Below, one piece after another: positions 3,147 through 64,000 of a stretch of 64,000 bases of DNA. Source of the stretch: Balanoglossus misakiensis (taxonomy: Eukaryota > Animalia > Hemichordata); assembly GCA_040954595.2 (NCBI GenBank), contig CM082581.2, positions 4,146,699 through 4,210,698 of the forward strand. The letters run 5' to 3'. The notes under the pieces were generated by a model, which ran no database searches, was not told the origin of the DNA, and saw only the letters and a program-made list of their open reading frames with translations. A program made the position numbers and the translations under genes. The stretch's first letter is position 1, and each line of letters begins with the position of its first letter.

Positions 3147-5689
3147 TCACTTGTCTTTCGGATTATCTTTGCTGACACCATCTTTTGCAGTTTCATCTTC
3201 TTCCAAAGCATCTTCCTCCGTATGATCAATGACGTCATCTCCTGCACTGTCAGATTTATCTGTTTCAATCGATGGAGAGTCTTCTTCAGTTGGGTTGGAT
3301 GGTGGCGCGCCAGAAGTTGTCGCGTCTTTCTTATCTTCTGGCTTGAAGTCTTTATCTTCACCCTCGACTGTTTCTGGATCGGGATCTATGGGTCCAGCCT
3401 CTCTGATTTTGGTCAAAAGGCTGGCAAAGACCTCCTCTTTCGGTTTGGGTTTCTCATCCGGGGTAAGTGGTTCCATGTCGCGTATTTTATCGGAAAGGTC
3501 CGCTTCCCAACTACGGGAGGGCGGCTCTCTGACTCTGTCCGCCAGCTGATTGTAGAAATACGTCTTTGCTCTCGCGATGGATGTGGCTGTTCCGTATATG
3601 GAGAATTGATCGTCGTTCTCCTGCTTGACATACACGTCTGACATATTGGTCTGGGTGTCCCGGGCCGCCTTTTGCAGTTTTTCTGGATCCGTGATTCTTT
3701 CCGGTGCGTGCAGGTCGTATTTCTGGATGGTGTGGAATGTGCTCTCGTAGAGTGAAACGAACCGTTGTTTGGCGCTGCGAATCTGCATCGGTTTGGTGTC
3801 GTCAGACGACGGGACGATTCTGACAGACGTGATTGTTTTTCCGTCGTCACATTTGAGTTCCACTTTGCATTCATCTTGGAGTTTCTTCAAAAGCTCCACG
3901 TGTGCCATCTTCAGGTAGTTGTAGACATCGGCGTCAACCTGGAGGTTTGGTATGTTATCTGCCTCACTGTCCTCCACATCATCTCCGACGTCTTCCATCA
4001 TCATCGCCATCATCACCGGGTTACTCATGATATCACTTTCTTCTCGTCCAGACATCGCCGCATATTCATCATGTCTTTCGGATGCATACGCTGCGGCTTC
4101 TAACTCAGGTTTCCCAATGGAGCCAGTCCATTCGCCTCGAGCTCCACGACGAGTCGAGGCGTCAGAACCCGATGATGGGTTAAAAGGCAATTTCCAGTCA
4201 CCGTCGTCTTCACCCGTTGCCATGTGTCGCCAAATCCTGGAAGATATATCTTCAGAAGGAGCAGCGCCCTCTTTCGACTTTGGCGACTGCCCTTGAGATT
4301 CGCCGAGACCGCTCCGATTTTCTAGAAACACGCGGGCCGCCTCAATTTGAAACCAGGTCCCCCTGACAGCGTAACATTTCTGACCGTCTAATTCCGTCTC
4401 CAGACAAGACAACCCATACTGCCACTGCAGTGCGTGTCGTGCCCCTGGTATCCCATCGACTAAATCACGTTTGATTTCTGCAGTTATTCTGTGAAAAACC
4501 TATAAACAAATGAAAATAAAAAACCGGATAAACTTCGGAGTGAATAAAGCATTAGTACTGGGGAAACTGAATCCGTGGGACTTGATGGTTTGATTTCGGA
4601 GTATACCACTTCTGACGTGCGTGTTTGGTGTCTGTGTTTCGGAGTGGTTCACTAACGTTTGGTATTGTTTCAGCACGCTGTCTCGCAAAGTGACTCCACC
4701 AACATTGCCCCCCCCCCCCGCTCCGCAGTCACTTAAAGGTACACGGTCACCTCCAATTGACATATGTCCATAAATGGCAAAAATAGCGTATCTGAGTGTT
4801 CTAAAGAACAAATGGTGGCGCTCTTTTTTCGCGTGTGCCACCGTACCCCTGAAAATCTGTGATTGGCTAGATCTCAGTTTGCCATGGTAACTGTAGTTAA
4901 ATTTGCATAGGTGACCGTATATGTCACCCGTAATATGGTGGGGACGTAGCTGGACGCATTTCCTTTTGAATCGTGACAGGAATAGGGATCGCTGTATGAT
5001 AAGAGCATAAGTGTTTGTAAAATATTAACGTCAAATTCCTTACTTGTTCGCGCAGAGGTCGTGTCCCCAGATGAACACCGCCAAACTTTTGAGGCGTCTC
5101 CAGCACCCGTTTAGCAACTGTATTAAGCAAAACAGAGAAAGAAATTGATTTAATACTTCCGTGTGCCGTTCTTTCGTCTTAATTTATGCCTCAAGCGAAA
5201 CTATACGTTCTAATTAACTATAGCATATCACCATTATACCACTCAACCATAGCAACAGGTTTAAATGTGTCAATGACATGTATGAACACAGACCGATGCG
5301 CGAGGCCACTGCTTTTACAACTACAGAACTTCCGGGTATGTCGTTATGCACACGGCAATATTAGCGCAAAACACTCCCGGGAAAACACTACGGCGTCGAT
5401 TCCAAGAATTCAATTCAGAAACGAAAGGAAAAACAAACACGTTTATTAAAGCCTGGCCAGCGGATTTATTCGTAAACCAACAATTTTCACGAATGCGTCC
5501 CAATCTCTCACCTTCAGGTGTCTCGAACGTGATGACTGCAAAGTCCGCTGTAGGTGTACCCGTTACTGGGTAGATCAAACTAGCCACGTCCCCTCCACCA
5601 TTTCGGCGCTTTTGGAAGTGAATCTCCAGTTCGTCTCTTGTTGCATGGGACGGTATCCCGGAAACAAGAATGCTGCGTTTGTCCGACAT
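3147..5689 (-). CDS. RBM43/PARP14-like protein (about 534 aa): N-terminal RRM, KH-like segments and an acidic disordered tail. Coding exons 5512-5689, 5044-5117, 3147-4499
   Basis: ATG at 5689 (MSDKRSILVSGIP...LEIHFQKRRNGGGDV...IYP...AVITFETPE) matches the 'HFQ..NGGGDV..YP..A.ITF' RRM typical of PARP14/RBM43/NMI-IFI35 proteins. Splice sites are canonical and in phase: G|gtgag at 5511, acag|TT at 5117 (phase 1), CAA|gtaagg at 5043, tttatag|GTT at 4499 (phase 0, VFHRITAEI, cf. RBM43 IFSSVNAIL). Exon 3 is a 451-codon open frame with KH-like segments (VDADVYNYLK...AKQRFVSLY; FSIYGTATSIARAK). Confidence 0.85.
4733..4921 (+). mobile_element. MITE family A, copy 1 (in intron 2 of the RBM43-like gene)
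   Basis: Starts TTAAAGGTACACGGTCACCT and ends AGGTGACCGTATA (terminal inverted repeat). Clearly alignable to 8620-8811 and to the reverse complement of 41483-41650. Confidence 0.8.
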
Positions 5690-8232: not shown

Positions 8233-8619
8233 AAGATCACGTCTTACACAATTTGCTTTACGAAAGCTGCCTTCGTACTTCAACAGACTTAAGCTTGCAA
8301 AAAGTATGTTGACACTGTTGCAAATGATATTACTACAGTCACGTTACAAAAGAAAATCCTTGACACTTGAGAAGCAATCACCAAGTTTTACCTGTAAATA
8401 ACTACTTTATAAAAAATATATATATTATATTTATTTTTTAAACATTGGATCCAAACTGTAACAAAACATGTTAATTTCTCCTAATAAAACAGCTATGACT
8501 ACTATTATTGTTGTTTATCGCGATAAATGCACAGAAGAAAAAACAGTCATTATAATATACTTTTAAAATATTGCCAGTTATGAAAAAACTTAAGGTGTTT
8601 ATACTGATTATGTGCAGTC

Positions 8620-8811
8620 TTAAAGGTAATACAGTCACCTCCAATTTACATACGACCATATTTGGCTGAAATGGTGTATTTGAGCGTTCTAAAGAACATA
8701 TGGTGGCGCTTTTTTTCGCATGTGCCACCCACTGAAAATCTGTGGTTGGCTAGATCTCAATTTGCCCTGGTAACTATATATACTTTTCCATAGGTGACCG
8801 TATACTTTTAA
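8620..8811 (+). mobile_element. MITE family A, copy 2; TTAA-flanked (Kolobok/piggyBac-type ends)
   Basis: TTAA-AGGTAATACAGTCACCT ... AGGTGACCGTATACTT-TTAA, with a shared core ttctaaagaacatatggtggcgc...ctgaaaatctgt..ttggctagatctca. Confidence 0.85.
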
Positions 8812-9031
8812 TGTTGATAACGAACTCTACACATCACCGATATCTGTTGCTATGAAATTGACACTCAGCTGCCTTCATATGAAAACGAAGTCTCAATTGC
8901 TTTCAACATTGTCAACGACATACGGAACACGGAGTTTGTAAAACCAAAACTGGTAGACACCTTGGCACTTCAGTTACAAAGGTCTCCTTATCTTTTACCA
9001 CATCGCTCTCCATAGAAATGAGATGCGCATA

Positions 9032-9970
9032 TCACACAGGCCATTTCTTCCGAGCCATTTTTCTTTTTCTGTGTGACAATTTCATGGCTCGAAGTTTTCC
9101 AGCCGTGCTCATTCTGGCTGTCTGTTTGGTGTCAGACACGACTCTGCTCTGCTTAACGACAGTAGTGGGAACTCGAACAACTAGTCTATGTTGCTGTCGT
9201 CTCCGTCTTTTGCCCGTTGTGCTCATTCTTGCTGTGCGTTTGACGTAGTGCTTCAGTTTTGCATCTGACGCGGTGTTTTTCTGAATATCTCCTCCTCCTC
9301 TTGTGGGACCGGAATCTGTCGTTTGTAGTCGTGACGACAATGTCTTCGCTGCACTCGACTGCTGGCCAATACGGACTTCACCCGGTAACTGTTACATTGC
9401 ACAGGCGAGAAACAGAGATAGAAACAATCAGACGCACACATATCGAACGGAAAGATGTAGAGGGCAGTACCATACTTGTAGGTGGGAAAACACTGACACA
9501 CACAGGCGGACGGACGATATACTTCAAAATTAAGAAAATAAAACCAGGCAAACGACATGTCTTACCTTCCATGATTCCTGTAGAAGAGGGCGAACGTTAA
9601 TCACTTGCCCATTAATCAAATGCTTTGACGATTTTGTTTCTACAGCAGCTGTAATAAAAAACACACCTGTAATTTTGTAAACAGTTTCGATTCACAACAA
9701 TACATGTAGCAAAACAACTATTAGTAGACGCTTTCAAGTGTTACATGTGATGTGCTCTCGGTATCAGCCGCATAAACTGTCTGAAACAATATACTTACTG
9801 TCTTCATTGGAAAACGTGATCACGGCAGTATCTTTTTCTTCCAGGTCCAGTGGATAAATGATATTAGTGACTTGGCCATTTTGAAGGCCTACTTCCTGGA
9901 AGTGCGTTTGCAGTTGTTGGGATGTAGTGTGTGGCGGGATATTGCTCACAACAACACAACGATTCAACAT
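9032..9970 (-). CDS. RRM paralog (about 203 aa) with a basic C-terminal tail carrying two histone H3 tail mimics (K9->M). Coding exons 9799-9970, 9566-9648, 9032-9388
   Basis: Exon 1 (MLNRCVVVSNIPP...LQTHFQ...NGQVTNIIYP...AVITFSNED) is homologous to exon 1 of the 3147-5689 gene. Donor A|gtaagt at 9798, acceptor tttattacag|CT at 9648 (phase 1), donor AAG|gtaaga at 9565, acceptor taacag|TTA at 9388 (phase 0), joining the open frame that ends at the stop at 9032-9034. Intron positions and phases match the paralog. An acceptor (ttttctacag) just before the ATG implies an upstream exon. Confidence 0.75.
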
Positions 9971-11337
9971 CTCTGTAGAAAAAGGGCAGAGAAATCTTAC
10001 ACGATGTAAAACTCGAAATGAAGCTGATGAAATTTAGTTGAATACAATCAGTATCTAAAAACACCACTTTTAATGATTTATCTGTTGAGAAAAGGGATAA
10101 CACAGGATTAAAGGAAGTTGGCAGGATCGAGATATCATATCTAGGCCTACACTTCATCTAGGTTTACAAAATCAGATTAGGCCGCACCGGTTTCTGTTTA
10201 ATAGTTTTTAAAACAGATCCACTAATGACCGTTTCAACTGAAGCTATCACCCGGGCGTTCACGACCTTTTGATGGATGTAGGTCAGTTCGGCAGCATATA
10301 TTTGCTGTTCAGAGTTCGACTGCGTTAATAGTTGGCTAGCCAGCGTCATAGACAATCTAGGGTATGTCATTGCTGAGAACAATGGATTTCCATTGACTTG
10401 ACTTCTAAAACATCAGCTGCACATCGCACCGGATTCCGCACGACCCATGGAAACCCATCGCAGATCTTAACAACCAACAATCAAGGGGAAAACCGGGGGA
10501 ATCCAGTTTCTTGACCCTGTTGTGACTCCACCCGCCCCCTTCACATAAACCACCGTGCACGGCGCATTACAAGAAGAGAGCGAACCTGAGCGAGAACGAC
10601 CTCAAAATTGAGACGATTTGGCGAGGCATACCTCAGAATCGCGTGTTCATGGCGCTGTGCACTCTCCCCGGGTAACTTTCGTGCTGAAACGCATCAATTC
10701 CTCCAGGTCGCCAAGCTGATGCAACGTTTGTTCAATTCACAAACTTCCTCGTCACACAACGAAAAACATGCAGATTCGAGTGCGTGTGTGTGGTGAGCTT
10801 CACGTACGGATAGTCCATGACGTCATGCATTTCCATTTAGGTCATTCGTTACCAGAAGTGCCGTTTAAGGTTACTATACGCATGCTCGATAGAATTTACT
10901 GATTCACACGTTGTATTTCCGCGATAATTCTAACCGATATAAAAATCGCGTTTTGAAAAACACAACGCAAGAACATCAGGTATAATCAGCATGCAGCACC
11001 CGCGTGCGAAATATAACTACATGTCGTGTCACTGAACTTAGGATAGAGGGCGCACGAACAGAAAGAACACCTCATAATGATGTCGGTCACAACTTGGTCT
11101 CCCTACTTTTTCAGGCTCACTCCCTTTTGTAATTTGTTTCTTCTGATCAATACTATAAATTCTAACGTTGATCACGCCGCACAGTTTCTTCAGATTCCGT
11201 AGTTTACCTGTCTTGTACACGGGCTTCTAGTTCTACATGTACAAGTAAATGGTATGCACCATGTACCAATATGCTCATACTTTTGTGAGAGGGTGGGCGT
11301 GCGCACGTCTTTAGATTTTCTTTCCTTTATTTATAGC

Positions 11338-11406
11338 AGAGTAAAAATCTCGCCAAAATGAATAAATGGTAAACACAAATTATTCATTTTGGCGAGATTT
11401 TACTCT
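11338..11406. repeat. Short inverted repeat / hairpin (about 27-bp arms)
   Basis: agagtaaaaatctcgccaaaatgaataa ... ttattcattttggcgagattttactct. Confidence 0.75.
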
Positions 11407-12304
11407 TGTGTCTACAAGTGGTGTGGAGGGTGTGTGTGGTCGAACGTTGATTCACTTTATATCCACACGTAGAATAACATAAATGGTGTCTTGTATCAAA
11501 CATAATTAAGGGAAAAGGGGCAGCGAGAGAGAGACTTTGTCACTTTAACATGATTTATCCAAGAGAGGTTGAGATTCCTGCTAGTCACCATGACATCACT
11601 TAGACAGACAACTTACAATGGCAATAAACATTAAATTGACCGAGATGATTCGTCATGCTTATTAATTTGTATTTTGCACTTCCCATTGTCAAACGACGTC
11701 ATCAAAATACCAAGATTGGTTTGCTAAATGACACGTGGAATTCATACAAATATGGCTTCAGCAGAAACTGATAACAAAATATCATATAGCATTCATGACT
11801 TCATGTAATCTGGTTTAAAGGTCACTCCTGGAAAGAAATACCAGTATTTTCATTTTCAATAATAATATTCATGAAAACTATCCGCTTTTGACATTTAGAG
11901 GGCAAAACAGTTCAATTCGAGCGTTGGCCATGCAGTCTATGTAACGTACACATGATAGTCACAGTGGGAGCAGTGACATTTGCCCTTTAATTGACAACAT
12001 TTGATATGTAATTGCGCAAAACGTTACTGGAACAAAAGCACAATGCAAATAACGTATGTGATATCGTGATACGTTTATAGTTACAGGGAATGTCTCCTGT
12101 TTCTGTGTGTGTGTAAACGTTTCCGTCATTATTGTACAGCGATTTTACGTTCATTAAAATTGTTGAGGAAGTGGGTCAAGGCACAGTAGAAAGGAAGATT
12201 ACAAAATGGATGGAAATATAATGTTACACAACTAGAATAAGTAGAGGTAAATAAGCAACGTCGATTTGTCCTGTAGGACTATCCAGGGTTTTTGCTACAT
12301 ATTC

Positions 12305-12828
12305 TATCCACCCCCCCTCTCTCTCTCTCCATCCATCCATCCATCCATCCATCTCCCTGTCTCTTTCTTTCTAGTTCTCTCTTGTTCTCCCCTCTCCTTT
12401 TATTTTTCTCTCTGTTCCGCACTCTCTTTCTCTGCCTTGCTCTCTCATTCTCGCTCTCTCCTCCCCCTTCCTTCCATATATCCGTCCGTCCGTCCGTCTG
12501 TCTGTCTGTCCCTCTTTCTCTATTTCTTTCTCTCTGGCTCGATCTCTCCCTGTCTCTTTCTTTGTAGTTTTCTCTCTTTCTTTCCTCTCTCTTTCTCTTT
12601 TTCTGTGTCTGTCTGTGTGTTTCGCTCTTTTTCTCTGCCTTGCTCTCTGCTGTCACGCTCATTCTCGCTCTCTCCTGTTCCTTCCTCATCGTCTGTCTGT
12701 CTGTCTGTCTGTCTGTCTGTGTGTATGTCTGTCTGTCTGTCCCTCTTTCTCTATTTCTTTCTCTCTGGCTCGCTCTCTCACTGTCTCTTTCTCTTTCTGT
12801 CTCGCTCTTTCATTCTCTCTCTTCCCCA
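12305..12828. repeat. Polypyrimidine-rich low-complexity tract, (CT)n/(CCAT)n/(CTGT)n, with an internal ~150-bp duplication
   Basis: The unit ttctctgccttgctctct..ctcattctcgctctctcct..gtctgtccctctttctctatttctttctctctggctcg occurs at about 12428-12560 and again at about 12630-12792. Confidence 0.9.
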
Positions 12829-15800
12829 TCTGTGTGATGAAACATATCTGATCGCCAAGAACGTGTTTGGTAAACAGCAGCAAATTGGAACTGGGTCATT
12901 GTACTGTTGTGCAGACAGAAAATTGATTCGTGGCGTCTGCAATGAGTTATGCTGTAAATACTAACACATCACCTAGACATAAATCTATAAATCTCGCTAA
13001 ATCTAAATCAGGAGTAAATACTGTATGATAACGTAATTGCTGACAGCATGTTATTATATGATATGACATTGTATGGACACAGAAATTATCTATATATCTT
13101 TCTACCCATGAAGAGAGGTTACCTGAGTTCTCGACATGACTTCATTCGTTAAAATACTAAATGACAGTTGCTTGGTTGAGATCAGCAGAAACGACATTAG
13201 GGCATTTCGCTGATTTCTGTGATCACTTGAATAGTTTTGACGTTTAAGATTATTCTTGCATTAGGGCAAGACAGCACGAAAGCAAACTGGTTTTATACTT
13301 TCGTTTTATTTGAGTATACCAATTCCTTTGATAGAACGCACTCGGGTTGGGAGTATCTCTGCACGCCTTTGGTAATTCCCCCAGTAATCGGTGCCACTCG
13401 TCCACTGCGATTTATTTTGTTCACCGTGCATGCATGAGGATAAAAGCTAATGATGTCCGAATCCTATGTGGGATAAACACGTGCAACGTGGGCGGATGTC
13501 AGGCGACAAGGAATGGTTACAGGCAATATGGCGATGCTCGCCTTTAGACCAACCCCTGATGTATAAAAGTAAATGCCACGGATTAGTTCGGGTGAAAAAA
13601 CATATTCGATGACCGATATTCTACCAAGGGAAATTCAAATGTTGGACTTTTTTGCGGGTCAGTGTTCGAGCTCCTTACTCAAATTAAGTTTATACTCTTA
13701 GAGTACATTTCGGTGACCCTGAAATCTAGTCCTATTCTCAGCATGTAATATTCAATGGCTGTGAGATTATGGCAAAGGATTTCGGAGGCTTAAGATTTAA
13801 AGTCTGGTATATATTGTCGCGATCATAAAATGTCTGACTTTTTATATTTGAATGGATAATATCACCGAGGTTGAAATCGTTTCTTTTGTCATTTGACTTT
13901 ATTCTACAAATAATTGAATTGGTTACAATATCCGCAAAAGTTTACGTCAGTCACGTGATTTCATAAATAGACGGCAGCTCTTTCTTCTGAAGTAGTTATT
14001 TTATGTTTTGGCCCTTGTGTTGCTGAGTTGACGGGTTGGCGGGAATCTTAAAGGTCCTCCCTGTAACTTGTGGCTCTTTTTTTGTATTTTTGTTATGTGT
14101 ATCAACAATGGTTTCTTGCTTGTCTCCCTCATGAGGCAGACCTACATTCACAGTGTGAATCTTCTCAACGCAGACCATGTGTGCACAATGGACGTTTATT
14201 GTTCAAACATCGTGACTGTAGTCTGGAACAGAATGTGTTCGTCGACAATAACAGTGATCGACATAATACACATGGCTTCTTGACAAGCAGAAAAAAACGA
14301 GCTTGTTGAGATACTATAGGAAGGGGGACCCCGAGAAAATGTAGTTTATATACATTTAAAACACTCTGAATTAATAGCCATGCAGAAGTTACATATAGTG
14401 ACCCTTTAACATGCATAAGTGGCGGACAGAGAAGATACAGTCTTAACACAAACGGAACAGACAGAAGAAAACAACAAAAAATTACAGTTACTTTCTCCAA
14501 AACATAATACGTACGAACGTTATATAATCATGTCATCTCATGTTATGTCACGTCTGAAAAACAGGATTAATATACCTGTATTATTAATGACCTAAGTCTG
14601 TGCAAACCAACTGTAAACCATTTCGGAGGCATCACATCACATTCGACATTTGATTAAACATTAATATAAGGTAGGCGTCACGATAAACAGTTTTAATTTT
14701 TAAGATTTCCACGAAATGAACTCCATTCTCGTTCAACCCGAGACCGCAAATTCTATCATCACGACGAACCATATCCATATGCCCTACTTCTGTCATTAGC
14801 AGATTCTCGAAACTACTAGTTCATAGATAAGGTTATAAATTAGTGTATTAAAATAAGAATTGATGACCGCATAGCACCCATCGCTAACGTAGGGCAAAGT
14901 ATGTCGACTATATGTTATGATCTCGGTAAATGGAAAGAGGGAACGACCTTTTGAAAGTACGAGTTGGGGTGTATATGGTGCGTATTTGATTTCCAACAAA
15001 TGTAGGCTTCCGTCAGCCATTGCTTTCAACACCAATCCAATTCGAAATATTGAAGATTTTGATGTCGAGTCGACGATCATTTTTTTAATTTAAACTGATT
15101 TATGTATACAATATAAATTATACAAATTCAGCAATTATGTGAAATAGGATTAATTGACTTTATTCTTTGATATCCAGTTGGATATGTTTGACTTGACGTA
15201 GGCTATACAACGATACAAAATATTCCATACCCATAAATTGCGTAAATCTATGTGTTGAACATTTTGACGAGTAACGTCGCCGAGTAACGTCGGCGATATT
15301 TTGCTGAAATCTGTGAATTCGGTAGATATTTTTTCTGAGTTTGTTGAATAAAACAAGTCTCAGTCCAACTACAGTGCATGCACCGTTCCAAAGATATTTT
15401 TCACCGACTATGTTTTCGGATTCATGATGTTGGGGACCATTCTTTTTTATTATAATATATTTGCTATACCAGTTTACGTTAGGCTTGACATTCTTTTCGG
15501 CCATGGACTCCTGTTCCTGTAAGTATACGATCAAATTCTCTTTGCTTCCCATATGATGTGTTTTTCAGTTCATAACCATCCTCCTGTAGAAAACTCCGCG
15601 GCCATGAAATCATACTTTTTGGATAACTGCATCATCAATTTCATTTGTCGCTCGTGAAAATAACCGCACATATTGCACGACTTGAACCATAGCCTGATTT
15701 AAATACATACGCCCCTTAGCAATTGAAATTAAAATGCGAAACAACTGAGCCGTGTGTTTCCATCCCTAACGAGATGTTCACTCGGTACAGGGAGGATGTA

Positions 15801-16392: not shown

Positions 16393-17417
16393 TCGATCGA
16401 TTAACCCAGGAAAGAACTCACTGAGTCACATTCCAAATCAAATTGATAACCACATTTCGAAGTTAGGACTCGATTTGAATTGATGATACTAGTAGTTGCA
16501 TAATGATGATGACACTATTCACTACTTTTAGAAGTTTTGTGGGATGACACGGGACGCATTAGTCACGTGACTGTTTGATTTCCAACGTTGGGGGTATTGG
16601 TCGATCTTATTTTGTTGTCCAACTTGGATGACGTCAAATGTTAAAAACGATTTCTTGACGACACTAAAAGTTTGAACTTACGTCATAACTGAAGGGTCTG
16701 AGACTTGCCGTTATTTCCATCCAGCTAAGCTAAGTGTCGTCGCGGTAGCTGAGCCTTTTCCATCTGTTGACGGGTAAAATCCGATTTCGTTGTCCGGAAG
16801 GAGTTACCCTATACTGCCATATTATTGTTCGGCAATTATCTCCTTTTCCGAGAATCGACGAAACGCGAGCTTCGCGTGTGCATGCACATGCCCTCATTTC
16901 CTGTGTCGGTAAGTCATTCGACACTCTATATCCAAATTGGCAGTCTTAATGGACAGTGAGAATTTTGCATCACTTTCGAGATGTTTACAGGTCACGTTGC
17001 TTTAAGATGCGACGATTTCATCCTTCCGAGACATTATCTTGCGTTCACTGACTCCCACTCTGCGTGTCACGTGACAGGGTAAAACCCTGCCGCCCTCTGA
17101 TTCGCAATATTTAAATCATTGGCCAGTCGCGGATCACGTGATCTGCTCGCTATATTAAACCTCAGTTTTGCCATCACATCCACACAACCACTGCAGGTAC
17201 GACGGTAAACCAAAGGTTGTGAAGAGCATATTGTCGGAAACGTAAACAATAACTGGTTGGTGATCGGCGGAGGCGATGCTCTGGCGCCAATCATCCAATG
17301 AGCAATGTGGTTTGTCAGCTTTGTAGGATCCTACGAGGGTGAAACCAGTTGCTATCATTTCTTCATAGTTTGACGCTCCGGAATCCCAAGTAACTCTAAA
17401 CAGTTTTTTCATCTGAC

Positions 17418-18404
17418 ATGGCCTTCTTACAGAATACATCTAACATCACAGCGTACAATGGTATCCAATCTTGCATTCACATCGACGAAACCGTGTACCA
17501 TGTCGGCACCGTGACGCTAGCAAGCGTGGGAATACTGGCAAACCTGTCGTTCATGTTCGTGTTAGTACGAACACCGGCGATGCGCACACCAACCAATGTG
17601 CTACTACTGAGTTTGGCGGTCTGCGACGTACTGTACTTATCACAGTTGCTGATCGTCAATGTCTGTCAAATCCTGCCCGGCGATGCCAAATGCGTGTTTC
17701 TGGTCACCATGGAATGCCGGTGTTTGATCACGTTAGCCATAGAAATGGCCCTCATAACCTCCTGTTTCACCGTCCTGCTGATCAGCATCGAACGCTACAT
17801 TGCCGTGTGCAAGCCGTTGAGCGTCACCGTCCACCGCGCCGGCACGCCCGTCTCCAAACGGAGAACCGTTCTCCTGTTGGTCTCCACCTGGTTGCCGGGG
17901 ACGTTCTGCAGTATGATACCCATAGCGGCGCTGCGCTACTGTCAGGTAGGCGAGGACAAAGACAAGGTTTGGCGGGTTGCGACGGCTCAGGTTCTCTTCG
18001 TGGTGGTGTTTCTGGTTCCTCTCGTGGCTGTTGTAACACTGTACACACTTATCATCAAGAAGTTATACAAGTCAGCCACCAGCGTCGCAGCCAAGACACG
18101 TAACAACAGAGGCGTCATCGAGAAACAAGTTGCCTTTCTTTGTGTTGTCGTTACCTGTGTCTATATCGTGTGCATCACTCCGTCGCTGATGTATTCGCTT
18201 GCGCACATCTTGCGTGTCTATTTTGGAGTTCATCTCATCTCTTCACAGCAGGGAGAAATTTGTCTCAATTTTATATCGGTGGATCTGCTGCTGTTGAACT
18301 CGTCACTGAACCCGTTCATCTACAACTTTGCCAACGCCAATTTCAGACAGGCATTCAGACAGACCTTCTCGTTTCAGACTCTCTCGTCCAGAGCATCATA
18401 CTGA
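17418..18404 (+). CDS. Intronless class A (rhodopsin-family) GPCR, 328 aa, orphan peptide-receptor-like
   Basis: Seven hydrophobic segments, N-terminal N-glycosylation sites (NTS, NIT), TM1 GILAN, TM2 LAVCD, TM3 ISIERYIAVCKP, TM4 W, TM5 FLVPL..LY, TM6 CITP, TM7 NSSLNPFIY and helix 8 FRQAF. Confidence 0.93.
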   Translation: MAFLQNTSNITAYNGIQSCIHIDETVYHVGTVTLASVGILANLSFMFVLVRTPAMRTPTNVLLLSLAVCDVLYLSQLLIVNVCQILPGDAKCVFLVTMECRCLITLAIEMALITSCFTVLLISIERYIAVCKPLSVTVHRAGTPVSKRRTVLLLVSTWLPGTFCSMIPIAALRYCQVGEDKDKVWRVATAQVLFVVVFLVPLVAVVTLYTLIIKKLYKSATSVAAKTRNNRGVIEKQVAFLCVVVTCVYIVCITPSLMYSLAHILRVYFGVHLISSQQGEICLNFISVDLLLLNSSLNPFIYNFANANFRQAFRQTFSFQTLSSRASY

Positions 18405-29187: not shown

Positions 29188-31417
29188 GAAGACGTGTAAG
29201 CTCTCTGTATTTCATCACATTACTGTAATACATGTCTGAGTGGTTATTTACTCGCCTTTTTCCAAATGTATAATTAATATATTTCTTGCTTCGGTTGCTA
29301 GGGTGATTTGTCATGGCGTTCTTACAGACGCCTAATGCTAAGCTTATATATAAGCGATAACAGACTGTGAAGGGATAGGGATACTCAGTGCAGACATCTT
29401 GAGGACAAAAATCTTCATCGCCGCTCTGAGAATTCATTGCGATGATTAATTAGGGAAACGACTAGGAAGGAGCGTTACATTGAGTGTGTAACTGGGTGCC
29501 ACTGTTGACAAATGAGCAGGCATGGGTTCATCTGTTGTATATGTAGAAATTATTTCGTTCAAGTACACATATAAAATTAACGTCAGGTAGGCTAAAATGT
29601 TAAAAATGGAACCGTGTACTGCGTCATATGACAAAGACTTTCAATGTTCATGAGAAGATGTGGACAATCACGAATTTACACAAAACGGTGACGTGATTCC
29701 CATTGCTGAGTACCTTCATTTCAACATCATTGATTTATTGAACAACAGAGAGAGGTATTGCAAAAGCCTCTAATTTAACACCTGGAATATGACACATATA
29801 AAACGCTCGGTTTGAGTATTGACGGGGCGAACGTGTTATAATTTCCGTTCTGCCCTACTTGGGTATTTACACTGTATCCATTTTTTGAGAGATCATTGAT
29901 TTCAGCATGAACGTACAAGAGACGTCTGATTTAAATGAGTGCAGAGAGAATTCGTCGTTTTTGCACCATTTTAATCATGACAACTAAAATCAGATATCGC
30001 CAGTTATCAAATAACTTTAGTTGAACCTCAACGTCCGTTGATCAATCGGCATTTTCACAGTTGCAGCGATGTTAGTATAGAATTAATGAAACCCTGTGGT
30101 GAGTGCATGTACAAACTGATTCGGGAAATTCAGCGCCAATGAATTGAAGCAGTCATTTTGACGATTGGCAACCATTATTTCCAGAGCATATATACATTTA
30201 TAACGTAAGTTTTAACATCGTAATGTTTGCATTTGTATTTGTAACATGTTTTTATTTGAAACATTTCATTTTTAGTAACGTGACGCAGTTTCGTTTGTTA
30301 CGAGGCGGCTGTTAATTCTATCTCAACTGTTGCTGCAACCTTCCCTACTTCAATTGCGCAATTGGGATGGGCGCCTCTTTGTCTACTATTAACCGTAACG
30401 TTGTTACACTTTCAGAGATAACGTGTCGCTGGCATAAAAGAAATACGGTGTTGCTAGTTAGGCGGCTGTTGCAGCTATTTTGAATTTTGTAGTACTTGTA
30501 TTTTATTAACACCAATCTAGAATTCAAAGATATCACAGAAAAGCAAGTAAAACCTATGAGAACAAATATCATCCGTAACACGCCACATAATACTTTTGAG
30601 TGATCCAACTTTATTGTGTGTTGTTAATCATTAATAATTCATAAAGGCCGAACCAGCATCTAATATTTGTCCCGCATCATTCACCTCACTGTATCCAATT
30701 TGCAGGCCACATCAATTAGTGCCGAGCACAATGAAGATAATGAAAATGAAACCAATGACCCGTTCACGTAGCACACAATATAGTCTTGCTTGATTGCGTC
30801 TCATTGCTTTGTAAGAGCATATCGGCTTCACCTCTGAAATGAGTATCTGTCCGTGTGAGCGATTACCCGTTGACATGGTTACATGTCTGTTGATAAAACA
30901 AGCATAATAAAAGTTTATGATGCGTTTAAGGAGAGAAGATCTTCACATTTCATGTCTTCACTCGTGATTATTTGAGTTCAGAGAATTTGAATTATTGTTA
31001 GCATTATAAAAAATCATCTTAAGTGTTAATTACATTAACAGTAAGTGGGGATAAGGAAATATAGTCGCCGCGCAATTTACAACAAGCCGTCCATCTTTTT
31101 TCCATTTTGTTAATTAAACGATGACAATGTACACATGTGGCAGGCAAAACATAGACGTCCATAATAGTAAGAAATATTGATTAATTGCATCATCCATATC
31201 CATTGTCTCGCCTTGCTTCTATTGTTTTGTTCCCACTGTCGATAAAGTGAATATAACTGTTTCTGTTACTTTATTTCTTTTGCTCAGTTTATTACAATAA
31301 TATACCAACCACGTTTCTATTTTTACTCCGTTTGGAACAGGCATTAACCGTAACAGCTGCCTTGGACACAGCAACCGACTCAAACCAATTGCCAGATCGC
31401 AGATTCGCCATACTAAC

Positions 31418-32524
31418 ATGGAAACGTCGTCTGCAACAGATACAGTTTCTTACGACACACCATTCACCGATGTTCAGAATTCCACTTCTACCTTACTCAA
31501 TGATAGTCGCAGTTTGGTCTATTTTCGGAGATGCCATTCATTCGAAGGAAGCTTAGAAGGATCATTGACTACCGCCTTGGCAGTCGTCGCGGTGATCATT
31601 AATTTGTTGATGTTGATGGTTTTTGCCAGGGTCCCCATGATTCGGATCTCAACAATGGTTTTATTCTGTAACATCGGCGTTTGTGACATCATCTTGGTCG
31701 TGGAAGATGCCCTTTTTGTTGGACGGAAAACGACTTGCGGAACGCTGATACCGCTAGATCTGCCCGTGAAGGCGTCTACTTGTACCGTCGCTGTCATAGC
31801 AACGGAACGCTTGTACGCAGTCTGTTATCCACACATGTACAGCAGAAGGAAATTAAATGATAAAGGAGAGATCGGCGCACTCCTAATGTCAACATGGCTG
31901 CTCGGAATACTAATTTCTACCGCACAATTTTTATTGAGTCGTTGCTATCACGCTAATCATATCTTTCCATATTTATTATCTGAAATCTTGAATTTGGCAT
32001 TCTTTACTGTTTGCCTGACTATTTGTTTCATATTTTATAATCGCATTGAAAAAAGAATGAAATTGGGTGTTGTTATACCCGATACATTTCAAGGTATTTT
32101 CGAAGAGGCTGACTTGATACAGTTGTGTCGCATAATTACTGCGATACATTTTGTGATGTATTTCTGTCTGCTGGCCACCAGATTTATATACACATGTCTC
32201 TTTGCGACACATTATAGATTCTTAGAAACATCTTATTGTTCTTATAGGATATCTCAGGTATTAATTGTCATCAGTGCAATTATAAAGCCCGTCACTGCAT
32301 TTTCTGTCAACCAAAGACTGCGAAAGTCTTTTAAGCACGCATTCAGGTCATGCAGGAACCGAGATGAAAATCACGATCCAAAGAAGAAAGTCAATAAAAA
32401 GACCTTGAGCAAATATACCACAAACCGTGTTGTACCAATACCCGATGACAACACAGTTAACTCCGTGAGTAATGATTTTCAAGGTAGACGCTCAAGGAGA
32501 GAACAGATCGACTTGTTTGACTAA
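31418..32524 (+). CDS. Intronless, divergent class A GPCR, 368 aa; probable paralog of 17418-18404
   Basis: Multiple TM segments, N-terminal NST/NDS sequons, TM2 IGVCD, TM3 IATERLYAVCYP, TM4 STWLLG and helix 8 LRKSFKHAF. The ICL1/TM2 segment (RVPMIRISTMVLFCNIGVCD) aligns with the first GPCR (RTPAMRTPTNVLLLSLAVCD). Confidence 0.85.
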   Translation: METSSATDTVSYDTPFTDVQNSTSTLLNDSRSLVYFRRCHSFEGSLEGSLTTALAVVAVIINLLMLMVFARVPMIRISTMVLFCNIGVCDIILVVEDALFVGRKTTCGTLIPLDLPVKASTCTVAVIATERLYAVCYPHMYSRRKLNDKGEIGALLMSTWLLGILISTAQFLLSRCYHANHIFPYLLSEILNLAFFTVCLTICFIFYNRIEKRMKLGVVIPDTFQGIFEEADLIQLCRIITAIHFVMYFCLLATRFIYTCLFATHYRFLETSYCSYRISQVLIVISAIIKPVTAFSVNQRLRKSFKHAFRSCRNRDENHDPKKKVNKKTLSKYTTNRVVPIPDDNTVNSVSNDFQGRRSRREQIDLFD

Positions 32525-34934: not shown

Positions 34935-37900
34935 TTAGATACTTGCTTCAATAGTAACATACACATCGTCATGGTCGTTGTCGCTTAGACCTGGCGTTTC
35001 AGTATGTGTTATAGACACTGGTGATTGTCTGCCCTCTTGACTATGTCGTTGTGTTTTCCTTCTGCAGTCGGAGCAATTGCACGAAAAGTTTCTGAAAAAT
35101 TCCCGGTTCGTAAACGGACTCAAAAACACATCGTCTTCGCCAGACTCTCCTGTGTGACTGATTCCCGTTGAAAGGGACGAGAAACCCGAGCTCTCTATGC
35201 CTAATGGGAAACTGTTTCTTCTTACAATAACACTAGATTTCGGGGGTGGTTGAGGTCGGACACGAGGCAGTTCTAGTCCATTTTCTGTGACGTTGTTGTT
35301 CAGTCTTTGCGCATGATCTTTACAAACACGGTGGCATGTATCTTCATCGATGTTGGCGGTGTCCATTTTGCTGCTGTTGTCAGTGCCTACCGGTTGGTTC
35401 CCGTTTTGTATTTCCTTGTCATTTAGGACGCCTCCGAACGGAAACTGTGAACTGTCCCTTTCCGTCGTGCTTGTCATGTGTTCCCCCACACGTAAGTCTG
35501 CATCTCGTTGGCGGCACTGTCCCTTCGGCAGAGCGGTTTTCAACTCAGCCACTGACTTCTCATTTCGTTCGTCGGCCATGACATCTATGGGATTGCTAAT
35601 GCCGCCCACCGTTATTGTGATTCCGTCCGATTCATCAAAATAGTCTTTCAGGTTTACCGCCATCGATTTTGGAGCAATCTCACTCTCAATGTCAGTACTG
35701 AAGCGAACGCTTGACGTGGATTTCTTGATTTGTTTGTTTTGATTTTTTAATGTGGTGTGAATACGCAAGCTTAGAGAGTCCATACTGTGGTGGTTGGACG
35801 ATAACAAGGACGATGACCTTTTCCCGCCTGCTGCATCGACAGCAGACGAGGCTCTTCTGGCCGCGTGCTGCATTGTTAGTTTTCGCACGGCAGCCGGTGT
35901 GTTCAACTGCGGTTTCATGATGATTATGAAACACTTTGGTCCAAAAACGCACATCAGCATTCCATACGACGAAGCTATCAACACAACACACTGTGCTAGA
36001 GCTTTGTATTTGCCATACGTCCACAGAAAGGCGGGAAAATATGTTAACCAGACGACAAAATAGACAAGCATGGAGAACATGATATGTTTGGTTTCATTGA
36101 AGTTCTCCGGCAGCCTTCGGGCCCTTATGGCGAAACCAAGACACACGCCCGCTATAGTCCAGGTGTAGAGAACCAGAACCACTGTCGGGGCAACCGCGAC
36201 GTCTTTGCACTCAACGTAGGTGACAGTCTTAGAAATGTCGTTATTGTAAACGACCTCAGGCGGCACTACCACTGACGTCACGACGTAGATGAGTAGCTGA
36301 ACAAAAACGAGTATCAGGACGATCATGATCTGAAGGCGCGTTCCAACCCAGCGATTTCGCTGCAGTGACGACGGCAGCTTCGCCTGGAATATCGTCAGCA
36401 CGCTGTGCGTTTTGACCAGCAATATGGACACACACCCGGTGAATCCGCAGCTCCTAAGCGGGGTCTGGATGAGACACTGAATATCGGTGGGTAATCCCAA
36501 GTAGAAGAACACACTTGCAAAGCATAACATGACGAAGGTCAGAAGCACGAAACTCAGATCGCGATTGGAGGCCTTCACCACCGGAGTACCGCTACACTTG
36601 ATGAACAGACAAATAACGACGGATGTAGCGAGAATACCAAGAGATGTCAATATCACCACCACGAGGCCACCAGCTTCACCCCATTCCAAATAATTCAGCG
36701 ATTTCACCTGGCACTCCGTGTTATTTAAGTTGGACCAAAAGCCAATCGGGCAGAGTGTGCAGGTAGAAGCCCCTGAAAAGAAAAAAAAGAAGAAAAATTA
36801 AGAATATTTTACTTACGCGGTACGGTATTCATATGTTGTCGCCTCACACTATCGTACTATGCAAGTAAAAGACGTCGCCGTACCCTACATCTGATTTTAA
36901 TCAGATTGCTTCAAACGCGTATTGTTGTCACGTGATAAATTTCGGGGAAAATGAATAATTCCCTGCGTTTGCGACGTTACAGAATGCATGGCTGTGCTTT
37001 CTATTTTTGTGTGTAATACTGGGTACACGAAAAGCTTATTAAATATATTATCTTGTGACTTGTTTGAGAAGACTTACCAGTCGTGTTGGATATTTCTCCG
37101 TCCAAACAGGGAACACACTCAAAACAGCAATTAGGAGCCCCGGGAATAACGCCTTTCCTGGTGCCTGGAGAACACGGTTGACTGCATACAGATACGGGGA
37201 TCTACAAAAAAACACACAGAGAAAACCAGTTACTTTGGTCACAAAACTGGTGGTATTTTTTGAAATATGGGAAGCGAATTTCTGACGAACTGCATCAGTA
37301 TGTTGGCCCGACATTGATACTGCCACGTCGTGTGACAACGACCTCGCTCTACTTTGAATGATCTCAATCAAATCCTCGACCCTTACTTAAATCAATTTTG
37401 GAATATGCCTGTGGTTAAAGTGGGTACAAAATTTAAAGCAGGTTTACTTCAGAATACTTGATTTCATTACTCTTCTGAAATGACGTCATTGTGACTGTTT
37501 ATTTGTCTCTGAAGTAAATGTAATTGTTATCTCAGATGTATTTTAGAATGTGTATATCCTTAGTGATTTCTTTATCAGTTTACAATGTCCACTTTGGCTG
37601 ATTTGCGCTTTGTAGTGATTCGTGTTGACATTGAAATGTACAGAAGACTAAGAGCGTGCTTTTTTATTCATCTCAACTGTACTGATGTATTTGAAAGGAG
37701 GTGGTGCAGATTTCTTGATAGATGTGATTTACCTGATCAGTTTCGGCCTTATAGTCCCACACAATATTCGTGTCATTCATTGATAATTTCTTTCCGTCTG
37801 CTGCACTCCCATCGTACATGCCAACTTCGACAAAATTGACGCCGTCACCAGATGACGACTCTTGCCAGTTGACCACGTGGTACAATGCAGTGACGTCACC

Positions 37901-40813
37901 AGTCTCGCTGAAACGAATGTGGCGTCCGTCAGTTCCAGTGAAATTGACTTCCAGTACGTACTTTAACAATTCCCACGGTTGCAATTGGTCTAACTTTGGA
38001 CACGTTCCATTGAAGAGTAGGCCGTCTGGTTCAACGCAAGTCCGGATATCTTCCAGGGCCGTGGCGATTGCGTAGACAGCCAAATAGGTACGGTAAGTGC
38101 CCCAAAGACCCGTGGGCTTATATGAAGGTGTTTCCTTGATGCTGTTATCCACAGAACACACAGACTGTTCCGTGATGCGTACTTCTGGGGTGACGCTTGC
38201 GTTTTTAGCCAAGGCGCTTGGTTGCTCCGGTAACACGCAGTCAAATGACGTTTCCCAAAGTTCGTTCAGAAATGGATTAGAAAAGTTGTTCCTGAAGGGA
38301 TTGAGATCTTCGAGATAATCACCAAATCCGGGAATCTCGCCGAGGGTCAGTAGAATGCCGTAAGTTCCGACGATAACCCGCAGATCCAGAGCGGAGATCT
38401 CGTTGTTATCGGCCCAAGCCTCGCTGGCGATCCAAATACGATCTATAGATGGGAGAAACACACATTCTATATGAGCGGGTAATGACAACACTCTAACGCA
38501 GTTAATCAATCACATTTACGCAGAAGAAAAACGCTATCGGCAATATTTAATCAAAACCGTATTACTTTTCATTCTATTTCCGCACTGGTGGCGCTTACTA
38601 AGTAAATGATACCGTCAGTATACTAAGAAAACTGGTCACCGTCCATTTGATATTAAAGCATGGCACGCGAATCGGATTATCAATAGTGACAGTTTCACCG
38701 GGAAAATTATCATGTACACCGTTAGGCACTCGAACCATGTTAAAAGATGGCACTGCAGGTTACATTCGCGATAGTAGACGCGGAATCGCCCACAAATGGT
38801 AGGTTTCCATGGAGCAGTGTACCTGAAATTTATTTTCATGTGGTTACTTCAGTCAACACCGACATTCGGATATCCTTTTGCATACGAATCAACCTAAGAC
38901 TTTTAAGCAGGTCACTTCCGTGATTAGGTGCTAGCTAGGTCCGTTCCGTGATTAGGTGATAGCTATCGTTCTACTTCCCACCGATACCACATTCCCTGTT
39001 TCAAAAGACAGTGCCAATAAGCTTCTGATGCCAAACGTACAGTAATAACGTTTTCTAATTTATGAAGTGTAAATCGACGTCTCTCATAAAATGTCTCCCA
39101 TGCGAGAGTTCGGAGACGGGGTGTGATTTGTAAAGACCGTTCGGAATACATGTGGAGTTACGATGCGACCCCGGGTGCGACTAGCCCCGCGTATACATCT
39201 GCATGCCCCCGGCGTTACACGGCCACCTGGTGGAGACTTTTAAACACTTGTCGGGAGCACCCAGACCTGTTCGCAGGGCTACGATGCGACCAGTTGAAGA
39301 ACTGCAACGGGAACACCGAAGTATAGTTTCAGTGTCAGGCGATTTCATTATACACGTGAGACCAGGTCTTCGGGCTGTTAAACTAAGCCCAGAGACCATC
39401 AACTATGAAGTTACTTCTGAACTAGTCTAGTTTCGCGTTTGCTCACTCGCGCCACGTCCAGCCACATGCCCTGTTTGCATGTCAAAGGACTTCAACCAAT
39501 CATGATTATCACGTCATAATTAGCGAGAGTGTGAGCTCGAGCATCACCTGCATTGACCTGAGTTTCTATTGTTGGAATTCTTTTACATGCAAATTGCTTA
39601 CGCCTGATGAACCGTTCTTTACAACTGAAGCCCTAGATAATTTGCAGTAACAGGTCTTACGAAAGACCGCACCCTGACAAGTTTAATTAAATTGGGTAAT
39701 ACCTCCTTCCAGGAGAGCGTCATTTTTATATCGATATGCGTATAAAAAGTATAGGAACGCGGCTGGAAAGTCGGTTTGGAAATATCGCCACACAGATTGG
39801 ATGCTCTTCACACCAAAACTGCAGACAGGAGAATTTTGGTCCGTACGAAGCCCGAGTCATATCATGACATATAATTAAGCTACAGAAAACGAATGCCACA
39901 AATGTTCGATTAAAAATAACCAAACAACATTCACCAACATACCTGTAATGCCTTGTCTTGCCACTTCTTCCAGAATTAATTTGATTTTTGCAAAATGAAT
40001 GAATGTCACCAAAACTTTTGCGTCAGGATTGTTCGCTATCGTCGACACAACATCCTTGATTTCTTCCTCTGTCGGGAATGACGTCACCAGTTTGCGGAAC
40101 GAAATGCAGCCATCTCTGACTTCCACCTCCCGAATAAACTGTTCAATGCCCGGGCGACCGTAAGAATCGTCGACGGCTATCGTACCCACCCACTCCCACC
40201 CAAAATGGCGGACTAATTCCGCCATAGCAACGGCTTGGTTGGCATCGCTGGGCACCGTTCTGAAGAAAGATTTGTAAAGTATCCTGTCGCTCAACAGCCG
40301 ACTTGTAGAGCTGTAGCTGATGATGGGCACGTTGAAAATTCCCATGACACTTGCCACGGGAACCGAAGTGGCCGAGTTGCTGGCTCCAATCACGGCAATT
40401 GTTCGCCCGTCGCCAAAGTGAATGTCGTCTGTATCTAAACTTGCGACGAAGTCGATGGCGCCTTCCAGGGACTTGGAAACCGCCGAACATGTGTCGCGAA
40501 TATCATAACCGAGGGTCACATTCGGCAATATGTCGTCTCTCTTGTTGATCTCTTCAATGGCGTAAATCATTGCTTGGGAACGGCGAAAGCCTTTGTAATC
40601 AAAACTGGTGCACTTCTCGGTGATGGGGCCAGAGTGCAAGTGGTCACCGTCGACTGCGATGCGTGAATGGAAAGAAAATAAACCGCCGATCATCAGGTCG
40701 CCGTGTTTGTAAACTCTCTGATTGTCCGTAGCTGTGTCACCTGAAATATCTCGAATGCTTGAGAGGGATATCCATACGACCAGGTAGGTGGCGGTGTTCC
40801 TGCTGCAAAACAT
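34935..40813 (-). CDS. Extracellular calcium-sensing-receptor-like class C GPCR (about 1180 aa): Venus flytrap, cysteine-rich domain, 7TM and long C-tail. Coding exons 39943-40813, 37733-38442, 37078-37201, 34935-36772
   Basis: CaSR-family motifs: GDLMIGGLF, GFRRSQAMIYAIEEIN..ILPNVTLGYDIRDTC, SYSSTSRLLS..YKSFFRTVPSD, WEWVGTIAVDDSYG, WIASEAW, CRD IPVSVCSQPCSPGTRKG..NCCFECVPC, TPVVKASN, RLPENFNETK, FGPKCFII. Splice sites are GT-AG with phases 1/0/1, and the CRD exon is 124 nt as in vertebrate CASR. The ATG at 40813 is followed by a signal-peptide-like segment. Confidence 0.92.
36807..36908. mobile_element. MITE family C, truncated copy in the last intron of the CaSR-like gene
   Basis: Shares ttttacttacgcggt..gtattc, the inverted loop (tgtcgcctcacact) and aagtaaaagacgtcgcc..accctacatctgattttaatcagattg with 32899-33050. 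Confidence 0.75.
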
Positions 40814-41316
40814 CGTTGGTGTGAAGAGATCCCCGGGCCAAGTGATTCCCCCTCGCTTGCTTGTGCAGCCTGTAGCCTTGGAATGGAATGATCCACTCAA
40901 GCCGTTAGGAATGGCCACTTAGTCAATGGAATGGTCCACTGCTGCCGATGGAATAGTCCTGTTCAAGGGGAATTTTTCAATCCCTGGTTCTTTCATTAGT
41001 TCTTGCTGACAAAATCTAGCGTTTTTGTTTTGGAAAGCATTGATTTCCATTTAAATATTTATCAAGTTCATTAATTAGTTTGCTTTTCATCTTTAACCTT
41101 GTTTCCCTTTCGCGTACCAAAGTATCACGGTTGTCCAAAATTAGTGGACTCTTGCATCTGTATTTGCTACATGGGTTCTGCGGGGGAAATTAGAAAGCAA
41201 TCATTAGCATATAACTGATTTGAAAATTGCTTCAAAGAGGAAAAAACAAGAGGAAAAAATGTATATTGTTGGAAAACCACAGTCGATTATAATGATCGTT
41301 ATCACAGCGCAAGACC

Positions 41317-62772: not shown

Positions 62773-63617
62773 TTATTTGTCGTACAATTTGTACACTCTG
62801 ATTTGATTGACAGGTGCAATCCAGCCCTGGGTGACAGCAATTCTGCGGCCATCTTGGCTGACAGCAATATGATTTGGATCACACATGTCATCTTCAAACA
62901 GGATGCGATCAAACTCACCATCAGCTTTCAACTTCACGATCCTATCATTTCCCCAATCACAAATGAAGATATTGTCTCGTTCATCTACATCGATGCCACA
63001 CGGACGATGAATCTGACCGTCACCGCTACCCTTCGAGCAATAAGAGGTGAGAAATTTCATGCCCGCATCAAAGACCTGGATGCGATGGTTGTTTTCGTCT
63101 GAAACTAACAGCTGATTTTTGCTGTTTGTGACTACAGCGTGGGGTCTGTTGAATTGCATTCGTTTATTTCCCTGCTTCCCAATCTCACCAACAAGCTTGC
63201 CATCCTTGTTATATTTCATCAAACGATGGCCACTGTAGTCAGTGATCCAAAAGAATCCAGCCATGAAAGCAATACTGCCAACACTAGTACCTTCTGGCAA
63301 GTTAATAATCTGAATGATCTTTCTGGTCTTGTCACAGACAATGACCTGCATGTTGCCAGAATCAGTTATCATATAGTGCTCGTTGGGGGACAGAGCTACG
63401 TTCCATGGCTGAAATGGTTTTGGAAACCGACCTTCAAATTCGATTATATTATCACATTGGTAGGATTTGTTGAGGATCTGTACGCGGTGATTTTGCTGGT
63501 CGCATACCACAAGCTGGTCATTATGCCATGTCAGACCTCTGGGAGCTTGAAATACTCCAGGCTCTTTACCATATGTCTTATTGCCAATCAACTGCACTGT
63601 CCAGTGAAACTCAGCTG
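62773..63617 (-). CDS. Terminal exon encoding an NHL-repeat beta-propeller (TRIM2/3/71-like); upstream exons lie beyond the window
   Basis: Repeated NHL motifs (FQAPRGL..LVVCDQQNHRVQIL; FNRPHAV...LLVSDENNHRIQVF; GSGDGQIHRPCGIDVD..IFICDWGNDRI). Polypyrimidine acceptor tttcattttattttacag at 63618-63619 (phase 1). Stop at 62773-62775. Confidence 0.88.
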
Positions 63618-64000
63618 CTGTAAAATAAAATGAAAGCACACATCGGAAATACTAAGCGTCTGCAACAGTTATTGGCATATACGTTAAATATCTTCTTCAG
63701 TAAAGAAGGCTTGCAAAATGTTTTTGCAAGGGCTACAGAATTAGATTGGGTTTGTTCTGAACGCATGCTCATTGAATCAAGATATCCACACATGCAGATG
63801 AAATGTTGTTACTATAGCACACAACAGACGTTCAATGATCGATCAACTAACCATGTTTTTTGTCCGGACCAGTTTGCTGTTGCTCGACATCTGATGCGCA
63901 TGGAGTTGGAAATGAAAGAGAATAGCCCTCTATCGGCCATTCTTTTCCCGACTGTCCACCCGGTTGTTTCTTGATTTGACTGCCAGCTACTGATGAAGCC

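Follow-up and report, generated by a model that had tools for sequence, protein, structure and literature searches.

The locus and its genes

The window, by which we mean the whole stretch of 64,000 nucleotides of Balanoglossus misakiensis DNA analyzed here, carries on its minus strand a predicted gene with a coding span of 9032–9970, hereafter the mimic gene. Its three GT-AG coding exons join into a 612-nt open frame for a protein of 203 aa, with an N-terminal RRM and a disordered basic tail that holds two H3K9M-like motifs. Coding exon 1 (9799–9970, 172 nt, donor GTAAGT) encodes the 5' part of an RRM of the PARP14/DTX3L type and coding exon 2 (9566–9648, 83 nt, acceptor TACAG, donor GTAAGA) encodes its end. 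Coding exon 3 (9032–9388), which is open for 118 residues, encodes the tail with both motifs, in which 31 K+R stand against 5 D+E. Motif 1, VKRTARMSTTGK (9209–9244, minus strand), has Met140 at the position of H3 K9 and is directly followed by RRRR, and motif 2, TKQTARMSTAGK (9095–9130, minus strand), has Met178 at the same position. The alignment of the RefSeq protein of Ptychodera flava spans both introns of the gene.

An acceptor AG is located 2 nt upstream of the ATG of the mimic gene, so that an additional non-coding exon probably lies upstream of coding exon 1. By sequence scan alone, 10632–10825 (minus strand) is the candidate region for this upstream exon and the promoter, with a donor-like site at 10632, TGACGTCA at 10818–10825 and a raised CpG o/e of 1.29. 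Two candidate polyadenylation signals, ATTAAA at 8812 and AATAAA at 8435 (8430–8812, minus strand), are likewise read from the letters only. Upstream of the gene, at 11344–11401, there is a 27-nt inverted repeat (93% complementary, 4-nt loop), possibly a small transposon remnant.

The product had been described in the earlier note as an RRM protein, which Pfam and Foldseek bear out and which can be narrowed to the PARP14/DTX3L/NMI type. Pfam RRM_PARP14_3 matches exon 1 with an E-value of 7.7e-7, and PF23085 scores above the cut-off in the window exon and in all three orthologs described below. In the AlphaFold2 model of the Glandiceps ortholog (3-sequence alignment, mean pLDDT 55.7), residues 1–78 are folded and no secondary structure follows, and Foldseek matches the folded domain to RRMs. 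Identity to P. flava amounts to 74% in exon 2 and 64% in the RRM, and in a tree of 18 RRM rows the four orthologs form one clade (98/95). The RRM type and fold are common to the mimic and the RRM proteins DTX3L, PARP14, RBM43 and NMI-IFI35 (PF23085, PF23222, PF07292). In contrast to the DTX3L/PARP14-type proteins, the mimic has no KH, macro, RING, DTC or PARP domain and bears a K9M tail after the RRM. KH-like repeats and a catalytic domain are absent from the orthologs, which range from 189 to 267 aa, and present in the Saccoglossus paralog P0027.

A tandem neighbor of 534 aa, with an RRM and a DTX3L KH-like domain by Pfam, is encoded at 3147–5689 on the minus strand (exons 5689–5512, 5117–5044 and 4499–3147). 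This neighbor has no RING or DTC and ends in an acidic C-terminal tail, as does its P. flava counterpart (P0017), and is taken as a truncated non-catalytic paralog. The RRM introns of the neighbor and the mimic gene have identical positions and phases (1, 0), which makes it likely that the mimic gene arose by tandem duplication of DTX3L-like RRM exons and addition of a new last exon; the neighbor would then likely be the sister paralog and the source of the mimic RRM exons. It is the ortholog of P. flava XP_070541466.1, an accession that adjoins XP_070541465.1 of the mimic, and in Saccoglossus a DTX3L-like RING-DTC gene and the mimic ortholog are found on contigs of equal length, so that synteny agrees with orthology. 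As to the order of events, a DTX3L-like gene would first have had its RRM exons duplicated in tandem in the enteropneust ancestor, a new last exon bearing one H3-tail-like motif would have been gained, and the motif would afterwards have been duplicated. A link to immunity through this DTX3L/PARP14-type cluster is speculation.

Elsewhere in the window, a class C GPCR with at least three large exons (ANF_receptor, 7tm_3) that is calcium-sensing-receptor-like lies at 34935–40918 on the minus strand. Two long single ORFs lie on the plus strand, one at 17400–18404, which is a rhodopsin-family GPCR, and one at 31301–32524, which is GPCR-like by eye and has no Pfam match at E 1e-5. An NHL-repeat beta-propeller exon at 62773–63651 (minus strand) probably closes a tripartite-motif-like gene. 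A long (GAT)n/(GGT)n microsatellite (1430–1670) and a purine-rich simple repeat (12279–12850) both create spurious ORFs.

The H3K9M-like motifs and their conservation

The earlier note had reported two copies of the H3 tail, both with Met at K9, and an identity of motif 2 to wild-type H3 at 10 of 12 positions. Both observations were reproduced, with TKQTARMSTAGK (9130–9095) and VKRTARMSTTGK (9244–9209) in the open frame 9388–9032, and motif 1 is identical to wild-type H3 at 8/12 positions. Compared with residues 3–14 of the H3K9M peptide of PMC5030085, motif 2 agrees at 11/12 positions and motif 1 at 9/12. The window was shuffled 60 times by codon block, and no six-frame match then exceeded 7/12. 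A back-translated pattern of nine codons matches the window exactly at two places and, at 44100, with two mismatches; 100 shuffles held 0.01 matches on average. Prokaryote genomes, whose matches served only as a chance rate and whose composition differs from that of the window, hold by estimate ~260 such stretches per 596 Gb, or ~3e-5 per 64 kb. By these shuffles and pattern counts, chance falls far short of accounting for the match to H3. Judged by the residues kept (K at -5, T at -3, T at +2, G at +4, K at +5), the resemblance to H3 is real and specific to K9.

Searches of viral contigs with two exact motif patterns gave 0 matches. Exon 3 matched no Pfam family and no PDB sequence at E ≤10, and no histone Pfam domain was found in exon 3 or in the orthologs. 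In the ESM Atlas, ortholog P0003 had only a 0.77 feature match to an ascomycete cluster and weak RRM structure matches. A K27-like reading of the C-terminus KMARKKWP (9038–9061, minus strand), which is loosely like H3 K23–P30, was dropped because the orthologs do not have it. With A1, R2 and T3 not conserved, mimicry of the H3 N-terminus toward a K4 reader or LSD1 was likewise discarded.

Exon 3 as the query led, out of 12 candidates, to a single protein, Ptychodera flava XP_070541465.1 (189 aa), and an HMMER scan with this protein gave 24 matches at E ≤0.001. Three of them are full-length family members, namely P. flava XP_070541465.1, Glandiceps talaboti XP_077992705.1 and Saccoglossus kowalevskii XP_006825968.1. 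The TARMST motif is absent from the other 21, and those inspected are RRM paralogs or repeats; P0006, P0009 and P0025 were rejected as relatives, being low-complexity or repeat matches without the motif. The orthologs belong to the families Ptychoderidae, Spengelidae and Harrimaniidae, and the split between Saccoglossus and Ptychodera is dated at >370 Myr (PMC4729200). Sequence and profile searches found no ortholog outside enteropneusts, which, these searches being word-based and length-limited, is weak evidence of absence.

Two motif copies are present in the window gene and in every ortholog, which makes four species, and the spacing between them varies from 38 to 95 residues. Among these eight copies, which come from four species and are not independent, K4, T6, A7, R8, M9, S10, T11 and G13 are each kept in 8/8, so that K-x-T-A-R-M-S-T-x-G is invariant, and the other positions vary (K14 in 6/8, G12 in 3/8, Q5 and T3 each in 1/8, A1 and R2 in 0/8). 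Loss of the motif in relatives, or Lys or variable residues there at the Met position, had been named beforehand as evidence against the mimic; in the three orthologs and the window this position is Met in all eight copies, never Lys or variable. In the four-way alignment, invariant columns make up 8/12 of each motif, 31/81 of the RRM, 0/52 of the linker, 2/26 of the spacer and 2/20 of the tail. The Met-peptide is a conserved island within a predicted-disordered, fast-evolving region. At their nine shared codons the two window copies show 3 synonymous and 0 non-synonymous differences, which are small numbers. By these alignments the locus holds a real, conserved acorn-worm gene whose most conserved feature is the pair of H3K9M peptides, and the motif is under purifying selection.

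Similar motifs also occur in other eukaryotes. Of 6064 candidates, 7 matched the family profile; three are the orthologs, and the other four are unrelated proteins that have K9M-like motifs. A search with the motif profile gave 35 matches among 3337 candidates, comprising 3 orthologs, 3 unrelated members of the profile and 29 new proteins, some of them from Caenorhabditis remanei, three mushrooms and Acorus gramineus. All 37 motif instances in the 33 proteins examined have Met, which follows by construction from a profile with Met built into it and is no test of enrichment. Among the 29 new proteins, two have a Pfam match and none has an RRM, so that they are taken as independent occurrences, some of which may be chance or relics.

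Several of these proteins can be described one by one. P0029 (162 aa), one of the four unrelated family-profile matches, bears two RTKQTARMSTGG copies, each with H3-like residues downstream, behind a chromodomain (PF00385), and may combine a reader of K9me with an inhibitor of the K9M kind; its tail had no usable match in the ESM Atlas. P0049 of Acorus gramineus is a histone-fold H3-like protein with the tail KRTARMSTGGKAPRK, either a K9M variant histone that occurs naturally or the product of a pseudogene. P0036 of Caenorhabditis remanei (305 aa) has TARMSTGGK and a second RMSTGG, and its several GRPRK repeats, which we take to be AT-hook-like, would make it a possible DNA-targeted K9M mimic. 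Eight environmental proteins (P0039, P0043, P0045, P0046, P0054, P0056, P0060 and P0061) have a similar P-x-K-x-[KR]-R-TARMSTGG[KR], mostly near residue 60, and may be a conserved family of a different lineage.

Fit to methyltransferase motifs and known K-to-M proteins

The recognition profiles compared here are those of human enzymes, applied to acorn-worm sequences. The recognition motif of SETDB1 is given as T-X-R-K-S(R)-T-G(S/A)-G/A (PMC11662677), and 7/8 copies agree with it at all positions but the K-to-M change. Position +3 is G in 3, S in 2, A in 2 and T in 1 of the eight copies, and the G/S/A set matches the variation that SETDB1 tolerates. SUV39H1 is described as preferring K at -5 and G/K/Q at +3, and SUV39H2 as reading G12 accurately (PMC8303541). 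K at -5 is found in 8/8 copies; G at +3 is missing in 5/8, which counts against a fit to SUV39H2 and SUV39H1. G9a is stated to require R at -1 (PMC2797608), which 8/8 copies have, and its crystal complex has residues 3–12 of the K9M peptide ordered (PMC5030085), of which motif 2 has 9/10. Binding and inhibition by K9M peptides are established for SAM-loaded G9a and Clr4, whose lysine channel takes up the Met (PMC5030085, PMC8167812). In the literature cited here, no report of K9M inhibition of SETDB1 itself was found.

Complex modeling covered the G9a type of enzyme only. The enzyme in the model (L029) is one of 50 metagenome G9a/GLP-type SET loci, a stand-in that has the SET core and post-SET without pre-SET and whose best PDB matches are EHMT2/EHMT1. 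Together with SAM and the peptide encoded by 9169–9068, this stand-in, for which a like complex is already solved, scored 0.89, 0.88 and 0.89, and the best of 3 controls scored 0.01. The score mark is reached by 51/78 solved complexes and 2/108 mismatched pairs, with peptides and disordered chains outside this calibration; in eukaryotes it is reached by 39/65 pairs without a like complex and 2/126 unrelated pairs. The runs share at least 92% of contacts, and the pLDDT of the partner is at least 58. The modeled interface consists of partner residues 14–27 (TKQTARMSTAGKLR), exactly motif 2, in the SET peptide groove. In the model, Met contacts F39, Y108 and F112, which by offset mapping correspond to G9a 1087, 1154 and 1158 in the numbering of PMC5030085 and are 3/5 of the lysine-channel aromatics named there. 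Since the G9a-K9M complex is solved, the model shows likeness to that complex, not binding by the window motif, and it possibly reproduces memory of the solved structure. The controls contain no Lys or Ala peptide, so that the model does not speak to the importance of Met.

The features of the K-to-M pseudosubstrate class, Met at the target lysine and R at -1, are found in 8/8 copies each. The known natural protein of this kind, EZHIP (CXorf67), resembles the mimic in being non-histone, largely disordered, fast-evolving and lineage-restricted, with an invariant histone-like peptide that has Met at the target lysine and Arg at -1 (bioRxiv 10.1101/585729). The mimic copies H3K9 (K4...G13, K14), whereas EZHIP copies K27; the putative targets of the mimic would be SETDB1/SUV39H/G9a, whereas those of EZHIP are EZH1/2 (PRC2). 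Furthermore, the mimic has two copies and a folded RRM and is found in acorn worms, whereas EZHIP has one copy and is described as restricted to placental mammals (bioRxiv 10.1101/585729). The mimic was not assigned to the EZHIP family, in view of its K9-type motif, the lack of visible sequence homology and orthologs that are all acorn worms; by analogy, it likely works like EZHIP without belonging to that family. The earlier note knew of no natural K9M counterpart of EZHIP, and among the open-access papers listed none was found, nor any description of the mimic gene itself.

The mimic is also close to the engineered H3K9M oncohistone, since motif 2 has nine of the ten G9a-ordered residues and equivalents of S10 and K14 are present (PMC5030085, PMC8167812). 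It differs in being natural and in having no histone fold, nucleosome incorporation or H3 N-terminus, and classification as a histone H3 variant was rejected on the missing histone Pfam match and on A1 and R2 (0/8). Mimics of H3K9 that bear Lys, among them the motifs at which SETDB1 automethylates, are likewise non-histone peptides that copy the surroundings of H3K9; they are, however, described as Lys substrates that recruit readers (bioRxiv 2025.01.21.634156, 2025.10.22.683908). The Met of the mimic cannot be methylated.

Proposed function and its alternatives

Ortholog conservation, published recognition motifs and the complex prediction make pseudosubstrate inhibition the best-supported hypothesis. 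The protein would be nuclear and would probably inhibit H3K9 methyltransferases as a pseudosubstrate, with SETDB1 and/or SUV39H as likely targets and G9a/GLP as a possible one. The basic patches would bring it into the nucleus, although a simple NLS pattern is present in only 2/4 orthologs; in the nucleus, Met would occupy the lysine channel of SETDB1, SUV39H or G9a in the SAM-loaded state, and H3K9 methylation would fall. Two motif copies could provide avidity, and the RRM may be a targeting module toward RNA or a partner protein. Phosphorylation of S10 is reported to weaken K9M binding to Clr4 (PMC5030085) and ubiquitin at K14 to strengthen it, with a KD of 1.42 -> 0.34 uM (PMC8167812), so that the retained equivalents of S10 and K14 might work as off and on switches, respectively. 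In fission yeast, K9M alone is a weak Clr4 binder at the former KD, and chromatin trapping needs K14ub (PMC8167812). A bare EZHIP peptide left cellular H3K27me unlowered without the flanking disordered sequence (bioRxiv 10.1101/585729), and on both reports, inhibition by a free mimic may be weak.

The motif could instead serve other enzymes of the H3 tail as a decoy or docking site, either an S10/T11 kinase with 14-3-3 or a trapped K9 demethylase or deacylase, with Met keeping the site free of K9 methylation and acetylation. The copies retain R-x-S-T and equivalents of G13/K14, which surround the H3S10 phospho-site according to kinase and 14-3-3 preferences. A K9 demethylase and a sirtuin reportedly bind K9M nucleosomes, which would count for such a decoy; the open-access literature gave no match for K9M with KDM3B and SIRT1. 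Left unexplained, however, is the Met in 8/8 copies, never another non-lysine residue, and SET inhibition is described as restricted to few residues, Met or Ile at the EZHIP site (bioRxiv 10.1101/585729). The variation at +3 also fits the tolerated set of SETDB1, and the failure of chromodomains to bind the K9M peptide (PMC5030085) argues against a decoy for methyl readers, so we regard a role toward other enzymes as unlikely. Quite unlikely, too, is a non-turnover tether for a K9 methyltransferase, in which the enzyme would be relocated or degraded once the RRM has delivered it to an RNA, to a locus or to a ubiquitin ligase of the DTX3L-like kind. Such a role would suit the well-conserved RRM (31/81 columns invariant), its type, which is that of the N-terminal domain of DTX3L/PARP14-like proteins, and the full DTX3L-like RING-DTC gene on a Saccoglossus contig equal in size to that of the ortholog, but binding in the active site blocks catalysis regardless.

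There are two further explanations. Convergence on H3 of basic patches for nuclear import or nucleic-acid binding would agree with the very basic tail and with motif 1, which overlaps a bipartite-NLS-like pattern in the window gene and P. flava. This pattern is, however, absent in Glandiceps and Saccoglossus. NLS linkers are not sequence-invariant, whereas T-A-R-M-S-T-x-G is kept in 8/8 copies with a match to H3 far above chance, which makes basic patches a very improbable account. The motifs might also be what is left, neutrally, of a captured piece of a histone H3 gene, AAG -> ATG being one base change; weak H3-like sequence is indeed seen downstream of some copies, as after Glandiceps motif 2 (GGIPRQQQIALK). 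Against this stand two copies that stayed invariant for >370 Myr beside a linker with 0/52 invariant columns, and shared codons that differ only synonymously; the relic explanation is largely refuted, and we give it hardly any credence.

Returning to pseudosubstrate inhibition, we lean, by a narrow measure, toward the wider proposal that a bivalent K9M "oncohistone" protein has been kept for >370 million years in acorn worms as an endogenous inhibitor of heterochromatin writers of the SETDB1/SUV39H type. It would derive from a DTX3L/PARP14-type immune-gene cluster, would be switchable at its S10/K14 equivalents, and would be the best-conserved of a convergent TARMSTxG class in fungi, nematodes, plants and marine eukaryotes, one of them with a chromodomain, so that K-to-M mimicry would be a general means of regulating H3K9 methylation, rather than a peculiarity of PRC2 in mammals. 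The mimic yields a 12-residue peptide and possibly a genetically encoded, enzyme-selective tool without nucleosome incorporation, and as a search pattern the motif already picks candidates in other eukaryotes. K-to-M inhibition is known so far from tumors and from one natural protein class, EZHIP, acting on PRC2; if the proposal is true, the same K-to-M trick would have evolved against constitutive heterochromatin and transposon silencing.
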